A stretch of 56,871 nt of DNA from Candidatus Zixiibacteriota bacterium (GCA_040752075.1 JBFMFQ010000002.1:1-56871); one strand, 5' to 3'. Numbered from the stretch's first letter, positions 4,573 through 30,610 are shown. The notes: generated by a model not told the origin, from the sequence alone. Numbers and translations: made by a program.

Positions 4573-7500
4573 TCAGTCACAAGGGGGGTGCCCTGCGAAA
4601 TAGACGTAATCGATGAGAATTGCCAAGTCGACCGCGTTGACCAATCCGTCACAGTCCACGTCCGACAACTCCTCGACGTTCGGCACTCCTCCTCCAAAGA
4701 AGACAATGCTGACGAGGGTCATGATATCCTCCAACTGGATGACATCGTCGCCGGTCAGTTCACCTCGAGTCGGCGGGGCCAAATGGTAGGTTGCGCTCAC
4801 ATCTGACGAGGGCATTCGTCCGCTGACGGAAACGAATTCAATGGTCTGGTAGACCTCTGCGTGACCGTCGATACCGATTCCGGTCAGGTACTCGCCGGGA
4901 CTGCCAACCAAAGTGTAAATGATGTTGTACAATCCCGTGTCTGGGGAGGTGATCACGACCCGCGCGTCGGGCAAACCGCCACCGTTGTAGTCTGTCAGCG
5001 AGTCATAGGTGGCCCGTGATCCGAAGGTGTTAATTGCTGGCCCGATTGTGTCGACCCGCCCTTGTTCGTCTACCGGACCAACGACCGTCACTTGGACAGC
5101 AGGGCTCAACAACAGCTGATTGTCTGACTTCCCGGAGAGGGGTGGCGCTTCGCTATAAGCGGTGATTCTCAGGGGATCCGGCGTCAGCAACTTGTTCTTG
5201 GCTAGTTCGGATGTGTTGCCCAACGTGTCGGTGGCGGTGGCGGTCACCCTTGACCACTCGGGAAGTACAACTGAATCGACGTAGAACTGTCCGTTGGCAT
5301 CTGCGACGACCCTATCAAGCAGTAAATAGGCGGGCCCGTGGGCGGTCTCTTCGGGTTGCAGCGCAGGATTGCCACGCTTGGCCGCAAGGAACAGCTCAAT
5401 CCGAGAGCCAGGGGCAGCGGTTCCGAACACGGAGAAGGTGTCTCCACTCGCTTGCGATACCGAGTCGAAGACCGGGAAATTGATGAAGCCGTTCGGCCCA
5501 GTATCCCCATCCCCGAAGTCGTTTTCAGTCACCCCATCATCGCCCAAATCGATCCCAGGGCCCTGGTTGCCATAGAACTGGCATGCCGTTATTGTGTTGA
5601 AGAGCGCATTGGCGCCAGATACAGCCACGCCCGCACCCAGATTGCTATAAATCGCCACACCCTCGACAGTGTTGTTGGACGATTCGATCGTTAATCCTGC
5701 TTTCTCGTCCTTTCCATCGCCGCCGATGCGGATTGTGGGAACCCACGGAGGTACGGATCCGGGTGCGGTGAACCCCTGGACAAATGTCCCACCGCACCGA
5801 TCGGACAGGGGCGGCAAGGGCGATGTCAAGGAAATCCCGCCGCTCATTGCGAAAGTAATCGTGTCAGGCCCGGGATGCGCATTGGCAAACGTGATGGCGC
5901 CGCGCAGTGTGCCCTGTCCGCTGTTTGCGTTCGAGGAAACGACGGTCTCGAAAACGGAACCGCAGTTGGAGAGTACTGAGACGCTATTGGTGTTGGAACT
6001 GAGAACTGCAAGCTCGGGTGATCCGTTGCCGTCAAAATCAGCTGCAAGCATGGATGCTGGTGATGCCACGGGGTAGGATACAGGTAAGTCAAATTCACCG
6101 GTGCCTTTGTTCCGAAGGAGATTAACAAGCACAGGATTTCCGCCCAAGATCCCGAGGTCAACATCCCCATCGGAGTCGAAATCGGCCGCCTCGACCGGAC
6201 CAAGCCAGAATCCCAATTCAGTGTTCACGGGAGGCTTGAAAGTCCCAGCACGATTGTTCATGAGAACCGACAAGACATCGGAGCACGTGCACGTGACCAC
6301 TAAGTCAATGTAGCCATCATGATCCAAGTCAGCAGCCGTCACCGAGTTTGCTCCTCCCGACGGATAGGTCCCAGCCGAAACAAATTCCCCATTCCCTGAA
6401 TTTCTCAGAACATCATAGTAATTAGCGCAGCAGCCTGACTCCACGCTGACGATATCCATGTCCCCGTCCCGATCAAGGTCCGCCGCACAGAGGCGCCCTC
6501 TCAATCCGTTGTATTTGGCTAATGGGGCAAATGTGCCATCCCCATTGTTCAGGAGCACTGAGATGCGCCATGACGGGCCAGTACTGACAGCCAGGTCACT
6601 TACACCATCACCGTTAAAGTCCGCAGAGACGAGGAATGCCGGGCTTTCGCCGGCGTAATACTCCATCGGCGGCGAAAATAGTCCTGCGCCGTCGTTGATA
6701 AGAACCGACACAGTCGAGTTCCCATCATTGATCACGGCAAGGTCATTGGCCAAGTCCCCGTTCAGGTCTGCGGCTATGATTGTTTTGGGATTTGGCCCTG
6801 CAGGGAAGCTCACCGGGAGGGCGAATCCACCAAGATCAACATTCAAGAGGACGGATAAGGTTCCTGCAGCCGAATTCGCCGTTGCAAGATCAGGAAGACA
6901 ATCTCCATTGAGATCGACAGCCGCCGCGGAAGTGGGAGACGCGCCGACAGGGTAACTCGGAATCTCGGGGAATTTCCCATCCCCTGTGTTCTTGAGGATC
7001 GAAACACTTGCATCGTTCAGATTGGCCGTCGCCAGATCGAGGACTCCGTCCCCATTCAAGTCGGCAGCTACGATCGATCTTGGGTTACTTCCCACCCCAT
7101 ACGGGATCGCTTCTGCAAAAGCACCTTGCCCGTCACTCTCCAGGACTAAGACGCTTGGGGGGGTCGGGACGGGCGCTGTCGAGGACCTCGTAACTGCGAG
7201 ATCGAGATCACCATCTTGGTTCAAATCGGCGGCGACGAGGGATGTCAGGGTATGGAAACCGGAGGGCGACAGGGGAATGTAGTCATTAGCAGCAAACGAG
7301 CCGTCTCCGTTGTTCTCTCTGATGGCTACGCCGCTACCAGAGGAGACAGCCAAATCGAGGTCTCCATCACCTGTCAGATCGGCGGCAACCACCGACAGAG
7401 GCAGAGAGCCCGTCGTGTAAACCACCTGCGGAGCGTACGTGCCATCCCCGTAATTCATCAAAACTGATAGGCTGGTGCTCGCCCCATTGACTACTGCAAG

Positions 7501-18885: not shown

Positions 18886-19168
18886 TGTGCAGGAATCCGT
18901 TGGCTGTCATGCACCCATTCGGATCGGGCAGCACCCAGAGTCACAATTTCGGAATTGTCGGCGCCGGGCAACAGCAATGATTCGGTGTGGGGACTTTACC
19001 CCACGCGGTCCAAACAAAGCGCACCCCAACCGGCATGCTTTGACACCCTGATCGATTTCGGTTGCGGCGGAATGGCCGATACAAACACTGGGACGAATCG
19101 GGCCATTGATGGCATGACAACTGAGCGTCTTAAGCGGGATCGGGGTGACGCCGGTCCACGGAGACATC

Positions 19169-20341
19169 ATGGGCGTATTTCTGGAAATCATCGAATGGAC
19201 CGACCCTTCCGGCGCGGAAATGATCCACCGTATCCCTGAAGTCGGCTCGGCGGACATCAAGTGGGGCGCGCAGTGCATCGTGCGTGACTCTCAATCGGCG
19301 GTGTTCTTCAAAGACGGCAAGGCGTGCGATGTCCTCGGCACCGGCCGTCACACGCTCACCTCGCTCAACCTGCCGATCCTTACCCGGCTTCTGGCCCTGC
19401 CGTGGGGGATGAAGTCGCCCTTCCGCTGCGAAGTGTACTATCTCAATCACAAGGTCTTCACCCAGCTGCGGTGGGGCACGACGCACCCGGTGGCGTTTCG
19501 CGACAAGGAACTGGGGTTGGTGCGCTTGCGCGCCTTCGGCAACTTCACCATGAAGATCGCCGAGCCGCTTTTGTTCCTGAACACGATCGTGGGACGCCAG
19601 GCGGTCTACACCACCGACGAGATCGAACAGTACCTGCGCGATGTGATTGTGTTTCGCCTGACCGACCTGTTCGGCGAGACCCTGGAGACCATCTTCGACC
19701 TGCCGCGTCAATACGAGGAACTGGCGGTGGCCGCCAAGCAACGGATCGCGCTTGAATTCTCCAAGTACGGCCTCGAATTGATCGACTTTTATATCACCTC
19801 GATCACCCCGCCGGAGGATGTGCAGAAGATGATCGACGCGCGCGGCGGCATGGCGGCGGTCGGGGATTTGAACCGCTTCCTCAAATTCGGGCTCGCCAAG
19901 GCGTTCGCCGACTCGGGCGGTTCCTGGCCCGCGGCCGGCGCGGGAATGGGCATGGGAGCGGGAATCGGGATGATGATGCCGGGTTTGATGTCGCGCGCCA
20001 TCGGCCCCGATCAGGTCGATCTCAAGACCGATCCGCTGCCCACGGTCACCTGCCCGAAGTGCGGCTGCGACACGCCGGAGACATCGCGCTTCTGCTACCG
20101 TTGCGGGCATCAAATGGTGGCGATCAACAACTGCCCTTCCTGCAACGCCGAGCTCCCGGCGGAGGCCAATTTCTGCATGGTCTGCGGCACGCACCTGGCG
20201 CAGAAGATGGACTGCCCGTCCTGCGGCAAGTCGCTGCCGATGGACACCCGTTTCTGTCCGGACTGCGGCACGGACCTCGGCGCCGCCCGTCCCGGCTCGG
20301 AAGCGGGTCCGGATGGACCGGCAATCGGTCCGACGGCATAA
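19169..20341 (+). CDS. SPFH/Band-7 domain protein of the COG4260 (YdjI-like) family with three C-terminal zinc ribbons
   Basis: - The N-terminus MGVFLEIIEWTDPSGAEMIHRIP...DIKWGAQCIVRDSQSAVFFKDGK is typical of the family.
- The C-terminus has three CxxC-N11/12-CxxC units: CPKCGC..FCYRCG, CPSCNA..FCMVCG, CPSCGK..FCPDCG.
- ATG 19169 has GGAGA 4 nt upstream. The ORF track GTG is at 19145. Confidence 0.8.
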   Translation: MGVFLEIIEWTDPSGAEMIHRIPEVGSADIKWGAQCIVRDSQSAVFFKDGKACDVLGTGRHTLTSLNLPILTRLLALPWGMKSPFRCEVYYLNHKVFTQLRWGTTHPVAFRDKELGLVRLRAFGNFTMKIAEPLLFLNTIVGRQAVYTTDEIEQYLRDVIVFRLTDLFGETLETIFDLPRQYEELAVAAKQRIALEFSKYGLELIDFYITSITPPEDVQKMIDARGGMAAVGDLNRFLKFGLAKAFADSGGSWPAAGAGMGMGAGIGMMMPGLMSRAIGPDQVDLKTDPLPTVTCPKCGCDTPETSRFCYRCGHQMVAINNCPSCNAELPAEANFCMVCGTHLAQKMDCPSCGKSLPMDTRFCPDCGTDLGAARPGSEAGPDGPAIGPTA

Positions 20342-20356
20342 TGGGCGGAAGGCCGG

Positions 20357-21688
20357 ATGCCAACCTGGGAGTTGAAGTGCCCGCACTGCGGCGGCCCCAA
20401 TGCGGTCGCCGCTGACCGTTCCTGCCTCGCCTGCCGATTCTGCGGGGCGGGATTGTGGGTTCGCCTGCCGAGTGACCACACCACCCTGGTGGCTCCCGCC
20501 CGTCTCAAGAAGCAGGAGGCGGTCTTCGCCTGGGATCGTCATCTCAAAGAGTCCGACCAGCCACTGTCGCGTTCGCCCCGCGACACGCGTCTTTTGTTTC
20601 TCCCCTTCTGGCGAATCAGCGCGATCGTTGCGATCCGTGAATCGGCCGAATCGAAAGTGGAGCAGGAGGAAGACCAGTGGGGCACTTTCGATTCCGAGGG
20701 GTATGTCCCAGCGCCGAAGCGTGATACCAGCCGGGACGCGACCGATGTACTGCTCGGCAACTGGTCGATCAAACCGTGGGAAACCACCACTCCCGCCTTT
20801 GCCGGGGGGCTGGCATGCCTCGACTCTCTCGGGATGCGGGCCGAGACCGCGCCGCTGACCGGCTGGGACCGGGTTGTCCTTTCCGATGAGTCCGTTTGCT
20901 GTCGCCCAGTCCTCGAGGCCGCAGACGCATTGCGACGGCTGGAGCCGGCCATCGCCAGCGTGCTCGGCATGGGCAAACGGGTGATCGAGGAACAGCGGAT
21001 CATCGCTCCGCGCCTGACTCTTATCTACTGGCCGGTCTGGCAAATGGCAGAACGTCGGGGTGAAGACTCCTCGGCCGCCGAGGTCGATGCGGTCAGCGGC
21101 CGGATCATCTCGACTCTGTCCGGACCGTTGCCTGAGGTCGATGCCGCCGGCGACTCCCCCGGGCACGCCCCCGTTCTGGTGCCGCATCGATGCCTGACCT
21201 GCGGGGCCGACTTGCCGGTTGATGACCGTTACGTGGTCTTTGTCTGTGGGAATTGCCGTAAACTGACGGCGCATTCCGAAAACGGCTCCCGGCTGGTTGT
21301 CGGAGCCGACTACACGATACCCGAATCCCGGGGAGATCAGCAGTGGTATCCGTTTTGGAGCTTCAACCAAGGGCGCACTCTTGTCCCTGCCTTTGGCATC
21401 CGCAGTTATAGGCACCGTTTGCGCCTCGGTGTGATCATGTCCGGCGCGGTGCGTGAGGTGACCCGCCCCGACGAGCCGCCACGCCATCTGGCGGGGGTTG
21501 CCGTTGGTCCCGAAGTGGCCGCCGGCCTTGCCCGGATCATTCTGGAGCGGGGACAGGTCGTGCCGGAGACGACAACGCCGGACACCGAACCCCGGCTGGT
21601 TTATGCCCCGATGAAGACCGTGGGCCGGGAGTTGGTCGATCCGGTCACCGGGCTGTGCATCGCCGGTAATGTCATATCTGCGTTTTGA
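20357..21688 (+). CDS. Uncharacterised protein with two zinc ribbons (internally duplicated)
   Basis: - Starts 15 nt after the SPFH gene stop, with GGAAGG SD.
- N-half: CPHCGG..CLACRFCG ... LLFLPFWRI ... LIYWPVWQM..VDAVSGRI.
- C-half: CLTCGA..FVCGNCRK ... WYPFWSF ... LVYAPMK..VDPVTGL.
- No family recognised. Confidence 0.6.
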   Translation: MPTWELKCPHCGGPNAVAADRSCLACRFCGAGLWVRLPSDHTTLVAPARLKKQEAVFAWDRHLKESDQPLSRSPRDTRLLFLPFWRISAIVAIRESAESKVEQEEDQWGTFDSEGYVPAPKRDTSRDATDVLLGNWSIKPWETTTPAFAGGLACLDSLGMRAETAPLTGWDRVVLSDESVCCRPVLEAADALRRLEPAIASVLGMGKRVIEEQRIIAPRLTLIYWPVWQMAERRGEDSSAAEVDAVSGRIISTLSGPLPEVDAAGDSPGHAPVLVPHRCLTCGADLPVDDRYVVFVCGNCRKLTAHSENGSRLVVGADYTIPESRGDQQWYPFWSFNQGRTLVPAFGIRSYRHRLRLGVIMSGAVREVTRPDEPPRHLAGVAVGPEVAAGLARIILERGQVVPETTTPDTEPRLVYAPMKTVGRELVDPVTGLCIAGNVISAF

Positions 21689-25457: not shown

Positions 25458-25484
25458 CGAAGACCATTTCGGGTGCGTGTGACG

Positions 25485-26480
25485 ATGACAACTCTCGGTT
25501 CCAACTCCTGCCGGACTTCTGTGCTGCTGCTCCTTTGCCTCTTGGCGGCACCCGTCGGCGCAACTGCCGGCGAGGACGGCGGGTATCCCGGCAACCAACT
25601 CCAATGGGGTGTCGGCGCCCGCGCGGTCGCCATGGGCAGCGCCTTCACCGCGATCGCCGAGGGAGCGACCGGCTTTGCCTGGAATCCGGCCGGTATCTCG
25701 CAGGGACGCGAGGATCGGCTGGAGTCCGCCTGGAGGACCAAAAGTTTCGACCGGCAGGCGGGTTACGTCGCCTATGTCCATCCCTTCGGCCGGGAAGAAG
25801 CGGCCATGGGTCTCTCGTGGGTCTACGCCGGGGAATCAAACGTTTATGAACGCAGCCTCGACGGCACACGCGGCGACAAACTCTCGAATTTCACCAACGC
25901 CGCGGCCTTCACGTTCGCGCGGCGTTTCACCCGCGTTCTCTCGGTCGGGCTGAATCTGCGCTATGTGCAGCAGGACATCGCGAACGTCGATGCGTACACC
26001 GTGGGGTTCGATATCGGCGCGCACTTCCGGTTTGTGCGCGACTGGCAACTGGGCAGCATGACCATTCCGATGTCGAAAGTCCGGATGGGCATCGCGGTTC
26101 AGCAACTGAACCAGAAGTACCCTTGGACCACCGGCGAATACTGGGTGAAGCAGGGCGAGACGGGCAGTTCCTTCGACGAGAAATTCCCGCTGATCATCCG
26201 TGCCGGCGTGGCGGCCAATGTCTGGAAGGACCGGGCGCTGGTCTCCGTGGACGGCGAGTTCAGCGACGAGTTGGATGAGCGCATCCATGCCGGGGTGGAA
26301 GTCATTCCGGTCACAAAGTTTGCCTTGCGCGCCGGGTTGGACCATGACCAACCGACCCTTGGAGCCGGGTGGTCTTTGCCCATCGAGCAGGCGCTCCTCT
26401 TGAACCTCGATTACGCCTTCGCAACACAGCGTGATGCGATCGATCCGGAGCATGTCTTTTCACTGGGTCTTCGATTTTGA
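25485..26480 (+). CDS. PorV/PorQ-family outer-membrane beta-barrel (paralogue 1)
   Basis: Signal peptide MTTLGSNSCRTSVLLLLCLLAAPVGATA. Family-typical N-terminal motif WGVGARAVAMGSAFTAIAEGATGFAWNPAGI. Alternating beta-strand pattern with a C-terminal OMP signature ending ..FSLGLRF. A GTG alternative start lies at 25473. Confidence 0.6.
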   Translation: MTTLGSNSCRTSVLLLLCLLAAPVGATAGEDGGYPGNQLQWGVGARAVAMGSAFTAIAEGATGFAWNPAGISQGREDRLESAWRTKSFDRQAGYVAYVHPFGREEAAMGLSWVYAGESNVYERSLDGTRGDKLSNFTNAAAFTFARRFTRVLSVGLNLRYVQQDIANVDAYTVGFDIGAHFRFVRDWQLGSMTIPMSKVRMGIAVQQLNQKYPWTTGEYWVKQGETGSSFDEKFPLIIRAGVAANVWKDRALVSVDGEFSDELDERIHAGVEVIPVTKFALRAGLDHDQPTLGAGWSLPIEQALLLNLDYAFATQRDAIDPEHVFSLGLRF

Positions 26481-26529
26481 TCTGCCAGGCGGCGCTTGAC
26501 CGATTGTCAGGCGGGCCGACAATCCCAAC

Positions 26530-27453
26530 ATGAGGCGCCGTTCAACCATGCGAATCGTTCCCGCCGCCTGCGCGGCTCTCTTGGGGTTATTGGCGACCGG
26601 GACATCGGTTTGGGCGCAAACGGGGGACTCGAAATCGGCGGGCTTTAAGTTTCTCACGATCGGCAGCGGCGCCCGTGCGGTCGGACTCGGGGAGACCATG
26701 GTCGCCGATATGGAGGATCCGTTCGTCCTCGAGTACAATCCTGCCGGCCTGGCCGGGATCGGCCGCGCCGTGGTGTCCTTCGCACACACCGAGTATTTCC
26801 AAGATACCCGTGGCGAGCACGTCGCGGCGTCGGTGCCCATTGGCCCTTGGGCGGCCGGGGCGCGTGTGGGGTACTTCGGCACAGAAGATCTTCCCTATCG
26901 CACCGGCCCCTCCGAGCAGCCGATCGCCTTCTTTGATGCGACCGATGGTGTCTTTCAGGCCGCCGTTGCGCGCCGAATGAATGAGACATTCTCGCTTGGG
27001 ATGTCCGCCGGCTATGTGATCGAACACATCGACCAGGAAACGGCACAGAGCGCGGTCTTCGCGCTGGGCGGCCAATACCGGCGCAGCGACCGTCTCACGG
27101 TGGGCGCCTCCCTGGTCAATTTCGGCCCCAGCGCCAGTTTCGTCGAGAAGGACTTCAAGATGCCCAACCGGTTCCAGTTGGGCGGTCTCTATCATTTCAA
27201 TCACTTCACCATTCGTGGCGAGCTGGTGGCCCCCGATAATCAGAACGCGAAGTGGCATTTGGGCACGGAGGCGACTCCCTCCCCCTACTTCGCGTTGCGC
27301 GCGGGCATCCGGCTCGGGTACGACTCGCAGGTCTTCTCCGCCGGGATTGGCGCGAAAACGCCCAACGGGCAATTCGGCGTCGACTACGCCTTTGTCCCGT
27401 ACAGCAACGATTTCGGTTCCACGCACCGGGTCGGTGTGTCGGTTCGTCCTTAA
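26530..27453 (+). CDS. PorV/PorQ-family outer-membrane beta-barrel (paralogue 2)
   Basis: Signal peptide MRRRSTMRIVPAACAALLGLLATGTSVWA. It carries the same motif as its neighbour (IGSGARAVGLGETMVADMEDPFVLEYNPAGLAGI) and has beta-barrel-like alternation throughout. Confidence 0.6.
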   Translation: MRRRSTMRIVPAACAALLGLLATGTSVWAQTGDSKSAGFKFLTIGSGARAVGLGETMVADMEDPFVLEYNPAGLAGIGRAVVSFAHTEYFQDTRGEHVAASVPIGPWAAGARVGYFGTEDLPYRTGPSEQPIAFFDATDGVFQAAVARRMNETFSLGMSAGYVIEHIDQETAQSAVFALGGQYRRSDRLTVGASLVNFGPSASFVEKDFKMPNRFQLGGLYHFNHFTIRGELVAPDNQNAKWHLGTEATPSPYFALRAGIRLGYDSQVFSAGIGAKTPNGQFGVDYAFVPYSNDFGSTHRVGVSVRP

Positions 27454-27502: not shown

Positions 27503-28381
27503 ATGAACCGGCCACGGCAGTTGTCATGCTTGTTGTCCTCGCTTCTTCCCGGGCTGACGGCACTGCCGGTCGCCGCCGCCGAAACGCCGGCGGACAGCCT
27601 CTCCGGCGGGTGGTTGGCGGCCGGGCGAAACGCCGAGCTGGCCGGAATCATCCTGTGCGTGATCGCCCTCGGAGTGACGGCATGGCTGGCGCGCCGGGGA
27701 AGAACTCCCCGTCTCCGGTCGCTGCCGGCGCTGGATGCGATTGGCAACGCCTTGGGCCGGGCCACGGAACAGGGAACGCCGGTGGTCTACATCACCGGCT
27801 GGGGCGGGGACATGGCGCGTCCGACGACCATGGCATCGATGGTCATTCTCTCCGAAGTGGCCCAGAACGCCGCAGGGATGAACTGCCGTCTGATTTTCCC
27901 CTCCCACGACCCGTTGGTGGCGTCGGTGGCCCAGGAGACCGTGCAGCAGGCGGCGCGCACAGCGGGCCGCCCGGATTGGTACCGCCCGGATGACGTGGCG
28001 TTTGTTTCGCAGAGCCAGTTGGGGTATGCCGCGGCGGTGGACGGGCTTATGGCGCGCGAACGGCCCGGCGCGGTCTTCCTCCTCGGCACGTTCGAAGGCG
28101 AGGCGCTGATTCTGGCCGAGACGGCCCATCAATCCCGCGCGGTGACGATCGCCGGAACCGACTCCACCATTCAGCTATCCTTTTTGCTTGTCGCCTGCGA
28201 TTACACATTGATCGGCGAGGAACTCTTCGCGGCCTCGGGGCTCGTGGCGAAGGACCAGACCATCGCGGCCGCGGTTTGGGGTCAGGACTGGCTTCGGTAT
28301 CTGATCATCACCACGCTCCTGGCCGGCGGCGCGTTGTTCTCTATCTGGGGATTCAACCTGGGTGCATGGCTAACAGGATGA
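27503..28381 (+). CDS. Uncharacterised membrane protein A (bitopic, about 190-aa soluble domain)
   Basis: 292 aa. N-terminal hydrophobic segments (LSCLLSSLLPGLTALPVAAA; LAGIILCVIALGVTAWLA), a soluble core, and a C-terminal helix LRYLIITTLLAGGALFSIWGF. No family recognised. It is the first gene of a tightly coupled four-gene set. Confidence 0.7.
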   Translation: MNRPRQLSCLLSSLLPGLTALPVAAAETPADSLSGGWLAAGRNAELAGIILCVIALGVTAWLARRGRTPRLRSLPALDAIGNALGRATEQGTPVVYITGWGGDMARPTTMASMVILSEVAQNAAGMNCRLIFPSHDPLVASVAQETVQQAARTAGRPDWYRPDDVAFVSQSQLGYAAAVDGLMARERPGAVFLLGTFEGEALILAETAHQSRAVTIAGTDSTIQLSFLLVACDYTLIGEELFAASGLVAKDQTIAAAVWGQDWLRYLIITTLLAGGALFSIWGFNLGAWLTG

Positions 28382-28388
28382 GAGTCGC

Positions 28389-29012
28389 ATGCTGAGAGAC
28401 TGGCTCTCCGTCGGCGTGGCAATGGCTGCCGGTCTGTTCATGACCGTGCAGTATTTCCTGGTCTCAGAGTCCGCCAACGCGGCCTACCGTACGGTTCTGC
28501 TGTGGATGCAGATTGTGTTCGCGTTCGCCCTGATCATCGGTGTGATCGGGGTGCTCCGGATTCACCTGAAGAAATTGTCGCGTCCAGGGAGCGGACGGAT
28601 CTATTCGGGAACACTGCTGGCGGGGGCTGTGCTGATGAGCGTGTTCGGGTTTTCCGGCGGCATCGAACGCGGGTCTGCCTTCCTCTGGGTCTTTGACAAC
28701 CTGCAGGCGCCGATGCAGTCGACTGTCTTTTCGCTGTTGGCCTTCTATGTGGCCTCGGCGGCCTACCGGGGGTTTCGCGCACGCTCCATGGAATCGGCGG
28801 TGCTGGTCATCGCGGCGTTGATCGTGCTCATAGGCCGTGTGCCCGTTGGGGAATGGCTCTCGCCGCACATTCCGGAATCGGCGGACTGGATATTGAATGT
28901 GCCCGCGCTCGCCGCCAAGCGCGCCATCCTGATCGGGATCGGACTCGGCATGATTGCGACCTCGCTTAAGGTGATCGCCGGACTTGAGCGCACCTACCTG
29001 GGGGGACGATAG
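28389..29012 (+). CDS. Uncharacterised polytopic membrane protein B (about 6 TM)
   Basis: 207 aa with about six hydrophobic segments (for example VLLWMQIVFAFALIIGVIGVL, TVFSLLAFYVASAAY, AILIGIGLGMIATSL). It starts 7 nt after gene A, with AGGATGAGAG upstream. Confidence 0.7.
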   Translation: MLRDWLSVGVAMAAGLFMTVQYFLVSESANAAYRTVLLWMQIVFAFALIIGVIGVLRIHLKKLSRPGSGRIYSGTLLAGAVLMSVFGFSGGIERGSAFLWVFDNLQAPMQSTVFSLLAFYVASAAYRGFRARSMESAVLVIAALIVLIGRVPVGEWLSPHIPESADWILNVPALAAKRAILIGIGLGMIATSLKVIAGLERTYLGGR

Positions 29013-29825
29013 ATGAGCGCCGCACCGCGCCGGTGGGTCTTCGCCGTAATGGGAGCGGTCGTGATCGGCGCACTCCTGTTTCGGGTGGGACTTCCCATTC
29101 GCATTACATCGGAGACACGGCAGGTCTACGAGCAGCTTGAGTCGCTCGACTCAAGTGACGTGGTCATGATCTCGTTTGACCACGAGGCGTCGAGTTTGCC
29201 GGAGATCGGCCCCATCGGGAGCGCCATCATCGACCATTGCCTGCGGCGCGGGACCAAGATCATCGGACTGGCGCTTTTTTCCGAAGGGACCGCGGCAGGA
29301 TACAGCCTGTTGGGCGATCGTGCCCGTCGTGCGGGCGCGGTCGAAGGCGAGGATTGGCTGTACCTGGGTTTTCGCCCGCAGTATGCCGCCGCGATTCTCG
29401 GCATGGGTGAGGACATCCCACAGGTATTCGAGACGGATTACCAAGGTCGCCCGCTCAGTGGCACGCCACTGGGGATGCGGGTTCACGACTATCGCGACAT
29501 CGCTATTGTCGTTTCCCTCTCGGATGGATCGATGCCCACCTATTGGGTGGAATACGCCGGCGCCCGCTATGGAGCGCGGGTGGTCGCGGCCCTCACCGCG
29601 GTGATGGTGACATCGTTTTTGCCCTACCTGGAATCCGGCCAGCTGGCCGGCATCGTGCCCGGCATGAAGGGCGCGGCCGAGTATGAGCAGTTGATGGGGC
29701 TTCCGGCGGCGGGCACCCGGGGCATGGACGCCCAATCGGCGGCGCATGTGGTCATCGCGGTGCTGGTTGTCCTCGGCAACATTCAGGCCTGGAGTGATCG
29801 TCGACGAGCGCGGAGGTCGCCATGA
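29013..29825 (+). CDS. Uncharacterised membrane protein A' (bitopic, apparent remote paralogue of A)
   Basis: 270 aa with an N-terminal helix WVFAVMGAVVIGALLF and a C-terminal helix AAHVVIAVLVVLGNI. The ATG abuts the stop of gene B (TAGATG), with GGGGGA upstream. Several short motifs line up with protein A. Confidence 0.7.
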   Translation: MSAAPRRWVFAVMGAVVIGALLFRVGLPIRITSETRQVYEQLESLDSSDVVMISFDHEASSLPEIGPIGSAIIDHCLRRGTKIIGLALFSEGTAAGYSLLGDRARRAGAVEGEDWLYLGFRPQYAAAILGMGEDIPQVFETDYQGRPLSGTPLGMRVHDYRDIAIVVSLSDGSMPTYWVEYAGARYGARVVAALTAVMVTSFLPYLESGQLAGIVPGMKGAAEYEQLMGLPAAGTRGMDAQSAAHVVIAVLVVLGNIQAWSDRRRARRSP

Positions 29826-30418
29826 CGATTGAGGTCACTCTCACCGCCCTGCTGACTTTGGCGATCTACTCCTTTCTCGCCGGCGACAACCCGTTTTATC
29901 GGTTTGCCGAGCACCTGCTGGTCGGCCTGACCATCGGTTACACGTTGGTGGTCACCATCAAGTCGGTCATCTGGCCGCAATGCGCGATCCCCATCGGCAA
30001 CGGCCAACTCTCCGCCATCATCCCGCTGGTCCTCGGACTATTGATCTTGCTGCGGTTGTCGCGTTCACTCGCCCCCTGGTCGCGCATCCCGCTCGCCCTG
30101 GTGGTGGGGGGCGGCGCGGGGGTCGCCATTCCGGCCATGCTCCAAGCCCGGGTCTTAAGCCAAATGGAGGCGACCATTTCCGGCACGGGGTCGGTCACTG
30201 GGTGGATTGTGCTCATCGGGGTGGTTACGACCCTGACCTACTTTGTCTTCACCCGCGAGCATCGGGGAGCCTGGGGGGCGGCCGCCCGTGGAGGGCGCCT
30301 ATTTATGATGGTCTTTTTCGGGGCGACGTTTGCCTACACGGTGATGTCGCGTGTGGCGCTCCTCATCGGCCGCCTGGAGTTCCTTCTTGGGGACTGGCTT
30401 GGTCTCCTGCGGACTTGA
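29822..30418 (+). CDS. Uncharacterised polytopic membrane protein B' (about 6 TM)
   Basis: 198 aa. ATGA start/stop overlap with gene A' and GGAGG 6 nt upstream. Hydrophobic segments include VTLTALLTLAIYSFLAG, LSAIIPLVLGLLILL, IPLALVVGGGAGVAIPAML and LFMMVFFGATFAYTVM. Confidence 0.7.
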   Translation: MTIEVTLTALLTLAIYSFLAGDNPFYRFAEHLLVGLTIGYTLVVTIKSVIWPQCAIPIGNGQLSAIIPLVLGLLILLRLSRSLAPWSRIPLALVVGGGAGVAIPAMLQARVLSQMEATISGTGSVTGWIVLIGVVTTLTYFVFTREHRGAWGAAARGGRLFMMVFFGATFAYTVMSRVALLIGRLEFLLGDWLGLLRT

Positions 30419-30433
30419 CCCGGGGGCGCCGCG

Positions 30434-30610
30434 ATGACCTGCCCGAGATGCAAGTCCGCCATGGTCGAGCAGAAGCGGGTGTTCCACGGCCAGCGCAAAT
30501 GGGTTTGCCCCGCTTGCGGCCGGGTCCGCTTTCAGGCTGTCAAAAAGCGGGTGACCCGGCGGCGTGATCGTGATCATTCGGCGCACCCACAGGGCCGATC
30601 TAGAAAATAG
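30434..30610 (+). CDS. Small zinc-ribbon protein (58 aa), absent from the ORF track
   Basis: My translation is MTCPRCKSAMVEQKRVFHGQRKWVCPACGRVRFQAVKKRVTRRRDRDHSAHPQGRSRK, ending at TAG 30608-30610. It has CPxC-N18-CPxC and a strongly basic tail. It starts 15 nt after gene B'. Confidence 0.55.
   Translation: MTCPRCKSAMVEQKRVFHGQRKWVCPACGRVRFQAVKKRVTRRRDRDHSAHPQGRSRK

Follow-up and report, generated by a model that had tools for sequence, protein, structure and literature searches.

The stretch of DNA analyzed here, hereafter the window, comprises 56,871 nucleotides (nt) from Candidatus Zixiibacteriota bacterium (GCA_040752075.1 JBFMFQ010000002.1:1-56871), and positions 27,503 to 30,610 hold a tightly packed cassette of four membrane-protein genes, designated A, B, A' and B', followed by a small zinc-ribbon gene. 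Gene A (27503-28381, + strand) encodes a protein of 292 amino acids (aa) that belongs to the Pfam family DUF6754, gene B (28389-29012, + strand) a 207-aa protein with six transmembrane (TM) helices, gene A' (29013-29825, + strand) a 270-aa bitopic protein, and gene B' (29822-30418, + strand) a 198-aa six-helix membrane protein that is, of the four, the most conserved across phyla. These four open reading frames (ORFs) had been reported in an initial annotation of the locus, and all of them were recovered with the same lengths and positions, each cassette gene being present in a single copy within the window. The hydropathy profiles likewise agree with the architecture described at that time, in which A and A' are bitopic, with a domain of ~200 aa between two hydrophobic helices, and B and B' are polytopic, with about six hydrophobic segments each. 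The junctions between the genes can be read directly in the sequence. The TGA stop codon of A (28379-28381) is separated by 7 nt from the ATG of B (28389), the TAG stop codon of B (29010-29012) abuts the ATG of A' (29013) in a TAGATG arrangement (29010-29015), and A' and B' share an ATGA overlap (29822-29825) preceded by GGAGG, a putative Shine-Dalgarno-like motif (29812-29816, + strand) located within the 3' end of A', 5 nt upstream of the B' ATG. This spacing suggests translational coupling of the four genes.

Conservation of the four-gene cassette

A scan of species-representative genomes identified at least 594 cassette loci, and the 80 loci retrieved for analysis come from at least 8 phyla, encompassing Zixibacteria/GN15, Ignavibacteria, Poribacteria, WOR-3, Stahlbacteria, Latescibacterota and Gemmatimonadota, together with single Bdellovibrionales and Terriglobales metagenome-assembled genomes (MAGs). 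The window itself is placed in the Zixibacteria by the source names of the A homologues. Searches with tblastn using the window proteins recovered orthologues of all four in the 80 independent loci (E about 1e-25 to 1e-120), a recurrence well beyond what chance would give, the cassette proteins are 40-50% identical across phyla, and the corresponding families are large, with more than 3,800 clusters for A, 1,323 for B and 868 for A', and 2,052 representatives at 50% identity for B'. Among the 76 A genes with enough downstream sequence, 75 are followed by B, A' and B' in this order in the tblastn results, and the gene order seen in the window is hence conserved well outside this genome. The sole exception, in a Gemmatimonadota MAG (L056:5229-8780), is a permuted but contiguous B-A'-B'-A arrangement that is tightly packed (B' stop at 7495, longest A ORF from 7500) and is followed by unrelated fxsA and glucokinase genes. 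Even a remote lineage in which B' is only 33% identical keeps the same four-gene order, B always adjoins A and A', and the median intergenic gaps, computed over 67 cassettes with start codons picked heuristically, are 8, 2 and 1 nt. A search for a fifth partner through the clustering of flanking ORFs revealed nothing else conserved across phyla in the 80 loci.

The cassette has also been duplicated as a block. Complete cassettes arranged head-to-tail in tandem, in two to three copies, occur in five loci (L036, L042, L064, L075 and L079; e.g., L079:4357-14792) from WOR-3, one Zixibacteria MAG (L064) and unclassified MAGs. Identity between the proteins of these tandem copies and those of the window is only ~40-46%, suggesting that the copies are old paralogues with diverged specificity. 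Furthermore, in a natural fusion protein (P0458), residues 5-283 correspond to A' and residues 373-597 to B', and the stretch that connects them holds, in this order, a K/R-rich segment, exactly one additional TM helix (295-313) and an acidic linker; this fusion argues for a physical association of A' and B'. The four genes are an obligate set, which behaves as a single unit in its inheritance, spacing and duplication and in occasional fusions. The conservation of the set and of its order, the duplication of the whole block and the natural A'-B' fusion bear out the view of the initial annotation that this is a co-inherited, tightly packed module with co-assembling products, and on these grounds the products of the four genes almost certainly assemble together.

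An apparent A'-B' fusion detected by tblastn in L042 was rejected, because a stop codon separates A' and B', and a B-A' fusion without the last helix of B (P0126) is probably an assembly artefact. In the closest A' orthologue (66% identical), an in-frame TAG at codon 110 (L001:9808-9810) interrupts an otherwise intact gene and may reflect erroneous sequencing, a pseudogene or a case of recoding.

The initial annotation had described the proteins of the locus as assignable to no known family. This holds for B, A' and B', which have no match in Pfam, NCBIfam, PADLOC, PHROGs or the PDB, but is not strictly true of the module, because A strongly matches DUF6754 (PF20539; E=4.8e-76, 255.7 bits where the cut-off is 27, aligned over profile positions 9-249 of 257), and all A orthologues examined carry this domain. 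DUF6754 is an uncharacterised Pfam family, and literature searches for DUF6754 or PF20539 returned zero papers. For B, A' and B', nothing beyond noise was found in Pfam or NCBIfam at E≤1, a Pfam scan of each member in the diverse alignments of the three families returned scattered single-member noise only, and their family profiles, as well as that of A, found nothing among PDB sequences at E≤0.1. As a test for an anti-phage defence or phage-derived module, PADLOC and PHROGs were searched with all five proteins and gave zero matches. The lack of Walker motifs and of MotA/ExbB/TolQ, ABC-2, Rnf/Nqr and GldL/M likeness, already remarked upon from inspection of the sequence, agrees both with the Pfam and NCBIfam results and with the pattern of conservation. 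PF01618 (MotA_ExbB) does not match B or B' at E≤1, nor, at E≤0.01, any of 94 members of these families, PF02508 (Rnf-Nqr) yields no Pfam or NCBIfam match for B or B', and PF09822, PF01061 and PF12698 yield none for the cassette proteins. No NCBIfam or Pfam model for type IX secretion system (T9SS) components (PorL/M, GldL/M and others) matches A, B, A' or B' at E≤1, and no catalytic motif of a known family was detected with either database.

Predicted topology, fold and relationship of the subunits

The topology of the four proteins was derived from hydropathy, from the positive-inside rule applied to 74-81 sequences per family and from the architecture of fusion proteins. In A, the lysine plus arginine (K+R) count is 4.47 in the 15 residues after the first TM helix (TMa), 1.56 before TMa and 0.81 after the second TM helix (TMb), and the protein is predicted to consist of a signal-like N-terminus on the outside, a TM helix, a cytoplasmic Rossmann-like domain of ~190 aa, a second TM helix and a C-terminus on the outside. 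In A', K+R counts of 2.84 before TMa and 3.89 after TMb compare with 1.88 and 1.69 on the domain side, and the predicted arrangement is an N-terminus inside, a TM helix, a periplasmic domain of ~210 aa, a TM helix and a K/R-rich cytoplasmic C-terminus. One soluble domain would hence lie on each side of the membrane, that of A in the cytoplasm and that of A' in the periplasm. The N-terminus, the loops between helices 2 and 3 and between helices 4 and 5, and the C-terminus of B hold 10.2 K+R versus 4.6 in its other loops, and B is predicted to cross the membrane six times with both termini inside, while B' (6.9 versus 4.4) is probably inserted with its N-terminus outside. Two independent observations agree with the predicted topologies. 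In long A homologues, TMa is preceded by a signal peptide and by fn3 domains (30.3 and 30.7 bits, cut-off 25), and the single extra TM helix of the P0458 fusion fits an A' that ends inside joined to a B' that starts outside. The N-terminal extensions of A span 100-450 aa (L066:6522-8798, L050:6702-8813, P0073, P0086 and P0111), and their composition suggests an extracytoplasmic binding module. One extended A orthologue also shows a weak GH85_C-like match.

Structure models obtained with AlphaFold2 cover A and B'. The model of A, built from a multiple sequence alignment of 24 sequences, has a mean predicted local distance difference test score (pLDDT) of 79.4 and a predicted template-modelling score (pTM) of 0.74, and in it helices 40-64 and 252-282 flank a pre-helix and a Rossmann-like sandwich of the (beta-alpha)5-6 type. 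A Foldseek search of the PDB with this model returned nothing at E≤1e-3, the best match having E=9e-3. The best matches are generic Rossmann folds (E 9e-3 to 5e-2, TM-score ≤0.38, root-mean-square deviation 5.6-18 Å), and the weak structural neighbours include the SIS domains of MurR and MurQ (probability 0.96-0.97), the RCK domain of MthK (probability 0.99, E=0.036), vWA domains and SDRs. Across phyla, 89 of the 292 positions of A are at least 85% conserved, the conservation being concentrated in GRATEMG, AESLILAET and ACDYTLIGEELFAAS, and in the model these conserved motifs track beta-strands.

For B', 66 diverse sequences yielded a model with a pLDDT of 91.7 and a pTM of 0.67, in which helices 3-20, 24-59, 63-79, 84-120, 125-141 and 150-192 follow a pattern of one short (~17 aa) and one long (36-43 aa) helix, three times over. 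Despite this short-plus-long pattern, sequence-profile comparison revealed no internal three-fold repeat in B'. Foldseek, which is less sensitive for small helical membrane proteins, returned only 11 PDB matches for the B' model at E≤10 (best E=3, TM-scores ≤0.23), and the same model matched nothing in BFVD. The Foldseek and Pfam checks of the two modelled proteins thus give no confident assignment to a characterised transporter or complex, in keeping with the initial annotation. About half of the 150 listed B' representatives exceed 235 aa, and many homologues carry lineage-specific insertions of 50-300 aa in the loop between helices 4 and 5 (query residues ~120-125), which is predicted to be periplasmic; among these insertions (P0365, P0372 and P0412), some display EF-hand Ca-binding motifs and one is charged and coiled-coil-like. 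Conserved polar residues are found in or at TM helices of three subunits: A' has invariant H245 and N256 in its second TM helix, A has D262 and K265 at a helix start, and B' has R78, R88, T173 and R177, accompanied by D22, N23, E30, E146 and H147 in adjoining loops. The cross-phylum alignments hold no conserved cysteine in B or B'.

The alternation of bitopic and polytopic subunits had led to the proposal that A-B-A'-B' is a duplicated two-gene unit, in which A' would be a paralogue of A and B' of B, and in which the duplication of an ancestral A-B pair would have produced a pseudo-symmetric hetero-oligomer. The alternation itself, the similar sizes of the proteins and the beta-alpha-beta appearance of A in its model, and of A' as judged by eye from its sequence, are compatible with such an origin, and one weak sub-profile match links residues 62-100 of B' (helices 3-4) to residues 5-54 of B (helices 1-2; hhalign probability 38.6%, E=3e-4). 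However, BLASTP reveals no homology (E=0.098 for A/A' and E=7.8 for B/B'), and full-length hhalign profiles of ~75-85 sequences per family give probabilities of 3.4% for A/A' and 2.9% for B/B', with only the hydrophobic helices aligned. When restricted to the soluble domains, the A and A' profiles score 12.9, below the reversed-profile nulls of 18.3 and 19.8. In the absence of profile homology between A and A', the pairs of short motifs that had been matched by eye as a sign of remote paralogy are what any two beta-alpha-beta domains would give. The lone sub-profile match is one of 15 comparisons, the other 14 being at noise level, lies in hydrophobic helices, implies opposite orientation and may reflect hydrophobic composition. 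Lastly, the predicted topologies place the domains of A and A' on opposite sides of the membrane and insert B and B' in opposite orientations. Duplication of an ancestral pair is hence an improbable origin for the cassette.

Neighbouring genes

The zinc-ribbon gene (30434-30610, + strand) begins 15 nt after the TGA stop codon of B' (30416-30418) and encodes 58 aa with a C3-P-R-C6 knuckle, 18 intervening residues, a C25-P-A-C28 knuckle and a basic tail. Its best Pfam matches are below threshold (Zn_Ribbon_TF, 20.7 against 29; Zn_ribbon_TFIIB, 19.3 against 22), and the CPRC-N18-CPAC knuckles are conserved in its orthologues. The initial inclusion of this gene in the module is borne out insofar as it is a real, conserved gene, but the corresponding small ORF (M.CP.CK..M.E.KRSFHKQRKWVCP.CG.VRFQ) directly follows B' in only 14 of 66 cassettes, often overlapping the B' stop codon by 4 nt. 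These 14 cassettes all fall within the closest-related loci (L001-L022), where the named sources are Zixibacteria, GN15 or Ignavibacteria, and the gene is a clade-specific accessory or neighbour outside the universal core. In three loci (L018:15660-15776, L021:12488-12601 and L027:13545-13658) the zinc-ribbon gene is detached, lying immediately upstream of an S11 peptidase gene several kb from the cassette, which raises the possibility that it works with the peptidase and not with the cassette.

Upstream of the cassette and co-directional with it lie two barrel-protein genes (25473-27453), the second of which ends (stop at 27453) 49 nt before A. As first annotated, both encode members of the PorV/PorQ family, exceeding the NF033709 cut-off of 90 with 99.6 and 130.5 bits, and, at 24% identity (E~1e-7), the two are distantly related paralogues; both score below the equivalog cut-offs for PorV and PorQ proper. 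The gene for a BNR-repeat protein further upstream had been taken for a T9SS-type cargo gene, a reading that finds no support in the C-terminal domain of the protein, which reaches only 24.3 bits with FlgD_ig (cut-off 27) and matches no T9SS C-terminal domain model. A Ppx-BNR-PorV-PorV-cassette synteny recurs in the related loci L001 and L081. Adjacency of the PorV pair is confined to one of the 80 genome loci (L001, the nearest relative of the window) and to the metagenome locus L081 of the same lineage, and one other of the 80 loci has a PorV-like gene ~5 kb away on the opposite strand.

The remaining neighbours are specific to lineages. The downstream gene in the window encodes an S11 D-Ala-D-Ala carboxypeptidase, and S11 peptidase and DUF72 genes accompany cassettes of Zixibacteria and Ignavibacteria, ABC sugar-transport genes those of Ignavibacteria, and aroK/aroB and sulfatase genes those of Poribacteria. 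In L082 (L082:1-7408), peptidoglycan-recycling-type genes (NlpC/P60, LD-carboxypeptidase S66, MR_MLE epimerase and Amidase_3) and an ABC sugar-type importer precede the cassette. Farther upstream in the window (19145-21688), the translations of two co-directional genes show a 398-aa protein with four or more CxxC...CxxC zinc-ribbon repeats at its C-terminal end and a 443-aa protein whose N-terminal end also has CxxC motifs. A promoter and terminator scan performed at chance level and was uninformative.

Interpretation and comparison with known systems

The observations assembled here can be accommodated by a widespread four-subunit complex of the cytoplasmic membrane, with ~16 TM helices contributed by two non-homologous pairs of proteins (A with B and A' with B'), which would probably act as a transporter or transducer; we regard this reading as about as apt to prove right as wrong. 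In such a complex, B and B' would constitute the membrane-embedded core, probably a conduit, A' would provide a periplasmic receiving or hand-over domain, and A would serve as a cytoplasmic ligand-binding, gating or energising module, so that a substrate or signal could pass through the inner membrane with the help of neither an ABC-type ATPase nor a known proton-motive-force stator motif. The small zinc-ribbon protein would be an accessory or neighbour added in Zixibacteria and Ignavibacteria. Transport or translocation is favoured over the alternatives, and taken on its own, the transport or translocation of a substrate is a tentative proposal to which we grant appreciably less than even chances. 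The expansion of paralogues is consistent with transport, as are the lineage-specific periplasmic decorations, which comprise fn3 domains on A and EF-hand or other long insertions in the B' loop.

Several points weigh against this reading. The topologies are predictions from hydropathy, the positive-inside rule and fusion architecture, and the roles assigned to the conduit and the domains are conjecture, because the structure models cover A and B' as single chains. The cross-phylum alignments reveal neither a Walker motif nor a conserved acidic residue that would be buried in a TM helix, and no substrate, cofactor or energy-coupling motif was found in the cassette proteins. The heterogeneous neighbours give no functional hint, and Rfam, searched with the window and with 13 loci, revealed neither a riboswitch nor any further known RNA element near any cassette; this result and the lack of a conserved partner gene do not narrow the function of the cassette further. 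Moreover, conservation as high as that of the A domain would be equally expected of an enzyme and of a gating module.

An enzyme is indeed at the centre of one alternative, in which the cassette encodes a membrane-bound complex for envelope biogenesis or recycling, acting on peptidoglycan or lipid-linked intermediates, with A as the catalytic subunit. The Rossmann-like domain of A is conserved at an enzyme-like level, with motifs along its beta-strands, the SIS-domain phosphosugar binders MurR and MurQ are among its weak structural neighbours, an S11 D-Ala-D-Ala carboxypeptidase gene lies near the cassette in Zixibacteria and Ignavibacteria, and the L082 cassette adjoins NlpC/P60, LD-carboxypeptidase, amidase and epimerase genes. 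The association with S11 and peptidoglycan genes is, however, confined to certain lineages and is not seen in Poribacteria, WOR-3 and other phyla, the Foldseek matches are insignificant (E≥9e-3, TM≤0.33) and generic, and the Pfam and NCBIfam searches detected no known catalytic motif; we consider this alternative unlikely, if the least so of those weighed here. The genomic context had also inspired the idea, put forward in the initial annotation, that the cassette works with the PorV/PorQ-like barrels and a BNR cargo, as the energiser or base, in the inner membrane, of an export system spanning the envelope. The family membership of the upstream genes, the synteny shared with L001 and L081, the predicted exposure of the A' domain to the periplasm and the periplasmic decorations of A and B' in some lineages would be in line with this idea. 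It is contradicted by the near-absence of the PorV pair from the other loci, by the abundance of the cassette in Poribacteria and WOR-3 beside unrelated genes, by the lack of any match to PorL/M, GldL/M, MotA/ExbB/TolQ or any T9SS model, by the lack of a stator-type conserved TM aspartate or glutamate and by the sub-threshold C-terminal domain of the BNR protein, and the proposed T9SS link can hence be given little credence.

The placement of soluble domains on opposite faces of the membrane, as predicted, would equally suit a role in signalling or mechanosensing, in which a periplasmic cue sensed by the A' domain, fn3 or EF-hand elements is passed on to the cytoplasmic ligand-binding domain of A. 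The Ca-binding EF-hand insertions in the predicted periplasmic loop of B' and the weak RCK likeness of the A domain (high Foldseek probability, but a poor E-value) point in the same direction, and the basic-tailed zinc-ribbon protein could be an output partner in some clades. Nevertheless, cassettes of all lineages lack a known output domain (kinase, GGDEF or HTH), both within them and in adjacent genes, most phyla have no zinc ribbon and 16 TM helices are many for a pure sensor, all of which makes a dedicated sensor very doubtful. A four-subunit transporter or translocase hence remains the favoured interpretation. Given its degree of conservation, the module likely has a basic role in the envelope or membrane, one that model organisms lack or fulfil in another way. 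With three of its four subunits in no described family, and with a confidently predicted fold for B' that has no solved relative, the cassette offers a well-defined target for electron cryomicroscopy and genetics, for which the present analysis makes the predictions that the four subunits form one complex and that the two bitopic subunits are oppositely oriented, provides conserved polar TM residues that can be mutated (H245 and N256 in A', E30 and R177 in B', D262 and K265 in A), and removes two misleading leads, gene duplication and the T9SS association.

When judged against Pfam, NCBIfam, PADLOC, PHROGs, the PDB and BFVD, the system resembles no characterised one by sequence, nor by fold for the modelled A and B'. 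The only catalogued component is A, a full-length, high-scoring member of DUF6754 (PF20539), but that family is a function-less entry covering one of four subunits, and the obligate partnership of A with three unassigned families, its topology and the structure of the cassette appear not to have been previously described. The A domain shares with the RCK domain of MthK and the SIS domains of MurR and MurQ a doubly wound beta-alpha-beta sandwich, as modelled, but these matches are statistically weak and come without sequence similarity to A, and the A domain sits between two TM helices, unlike RCK or SIS proteins.

Among known inner-membrane systems, NqrD and NqrE form a pair of ~200-aa six-helix proteins whose genes share an operon and which lie in the membrane in opposite orientations, and B and B' would share these traits with them and with RnfA and RnfE, their opposite orientation being a prediction. 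In contrast to the Rnf/Nqr subunits, B and B' have no PF02508 or other Rnf/Nqr match, are not detectably homologous to each other and lack conserved cysteines for an Fe-S centre, and the cassette lacks flavin, Fe-S and NADH-binding subunits. The periplasmic domain of GldG is held by an N-terminal and a C-terminal TM helix. The GldF/GldG system of ABC-2 and ABC_transp_aux (PF09822) proteins resembles the cassette in pairing a ~200-aa six-TM protein with a doubly anchored periplasmic domain, as in A', but the cassette is devoid of an ATPase gene in every phylum and of a Walker motif, the ABC genes near Ignavibacteria cassettes being lineage-specific, none of the PF09822, PF01061 and PF12698 models matches, and a second bitopic subunit, A, has a cytoplasmic domain. 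The MotAB, ExbBD, TolQR and GldLM stators are likewise hetero-oligomers of polytopic and bitopic inner-membrane proteins that extend from the cytoplasmic face to a periplasmic domain and are encoded by tightly coupled genes. They comprise, however, two subunit types rather than four, and the cassette proteins match neither PF01618 nor GldL, GldM, PorL or PorM, contain no peptidoglycan-binding or TonB-like domain and have no conserved TM Asp/Glu in the bitopic subunits, A' carrying H245 and N256 instead. These comparisons raise the prospect, which we hold to be marginally short of evenly balanced, that the cassette encodes an unrecognised class of four-subunit inner-membrane machine, widespread in Zixibacteria, Ignavibacteria, WOR-3, Poribacteria and allied phyla, that has an alpha/beta domain on either side of the membrane and couples two compartments, through transport or through energy or signal transduction, with at least one fold absent from the PDB and a mechanism unrelated to those of ABC ATPases, Mot/Exb/Tol and Rnf/Nqr.

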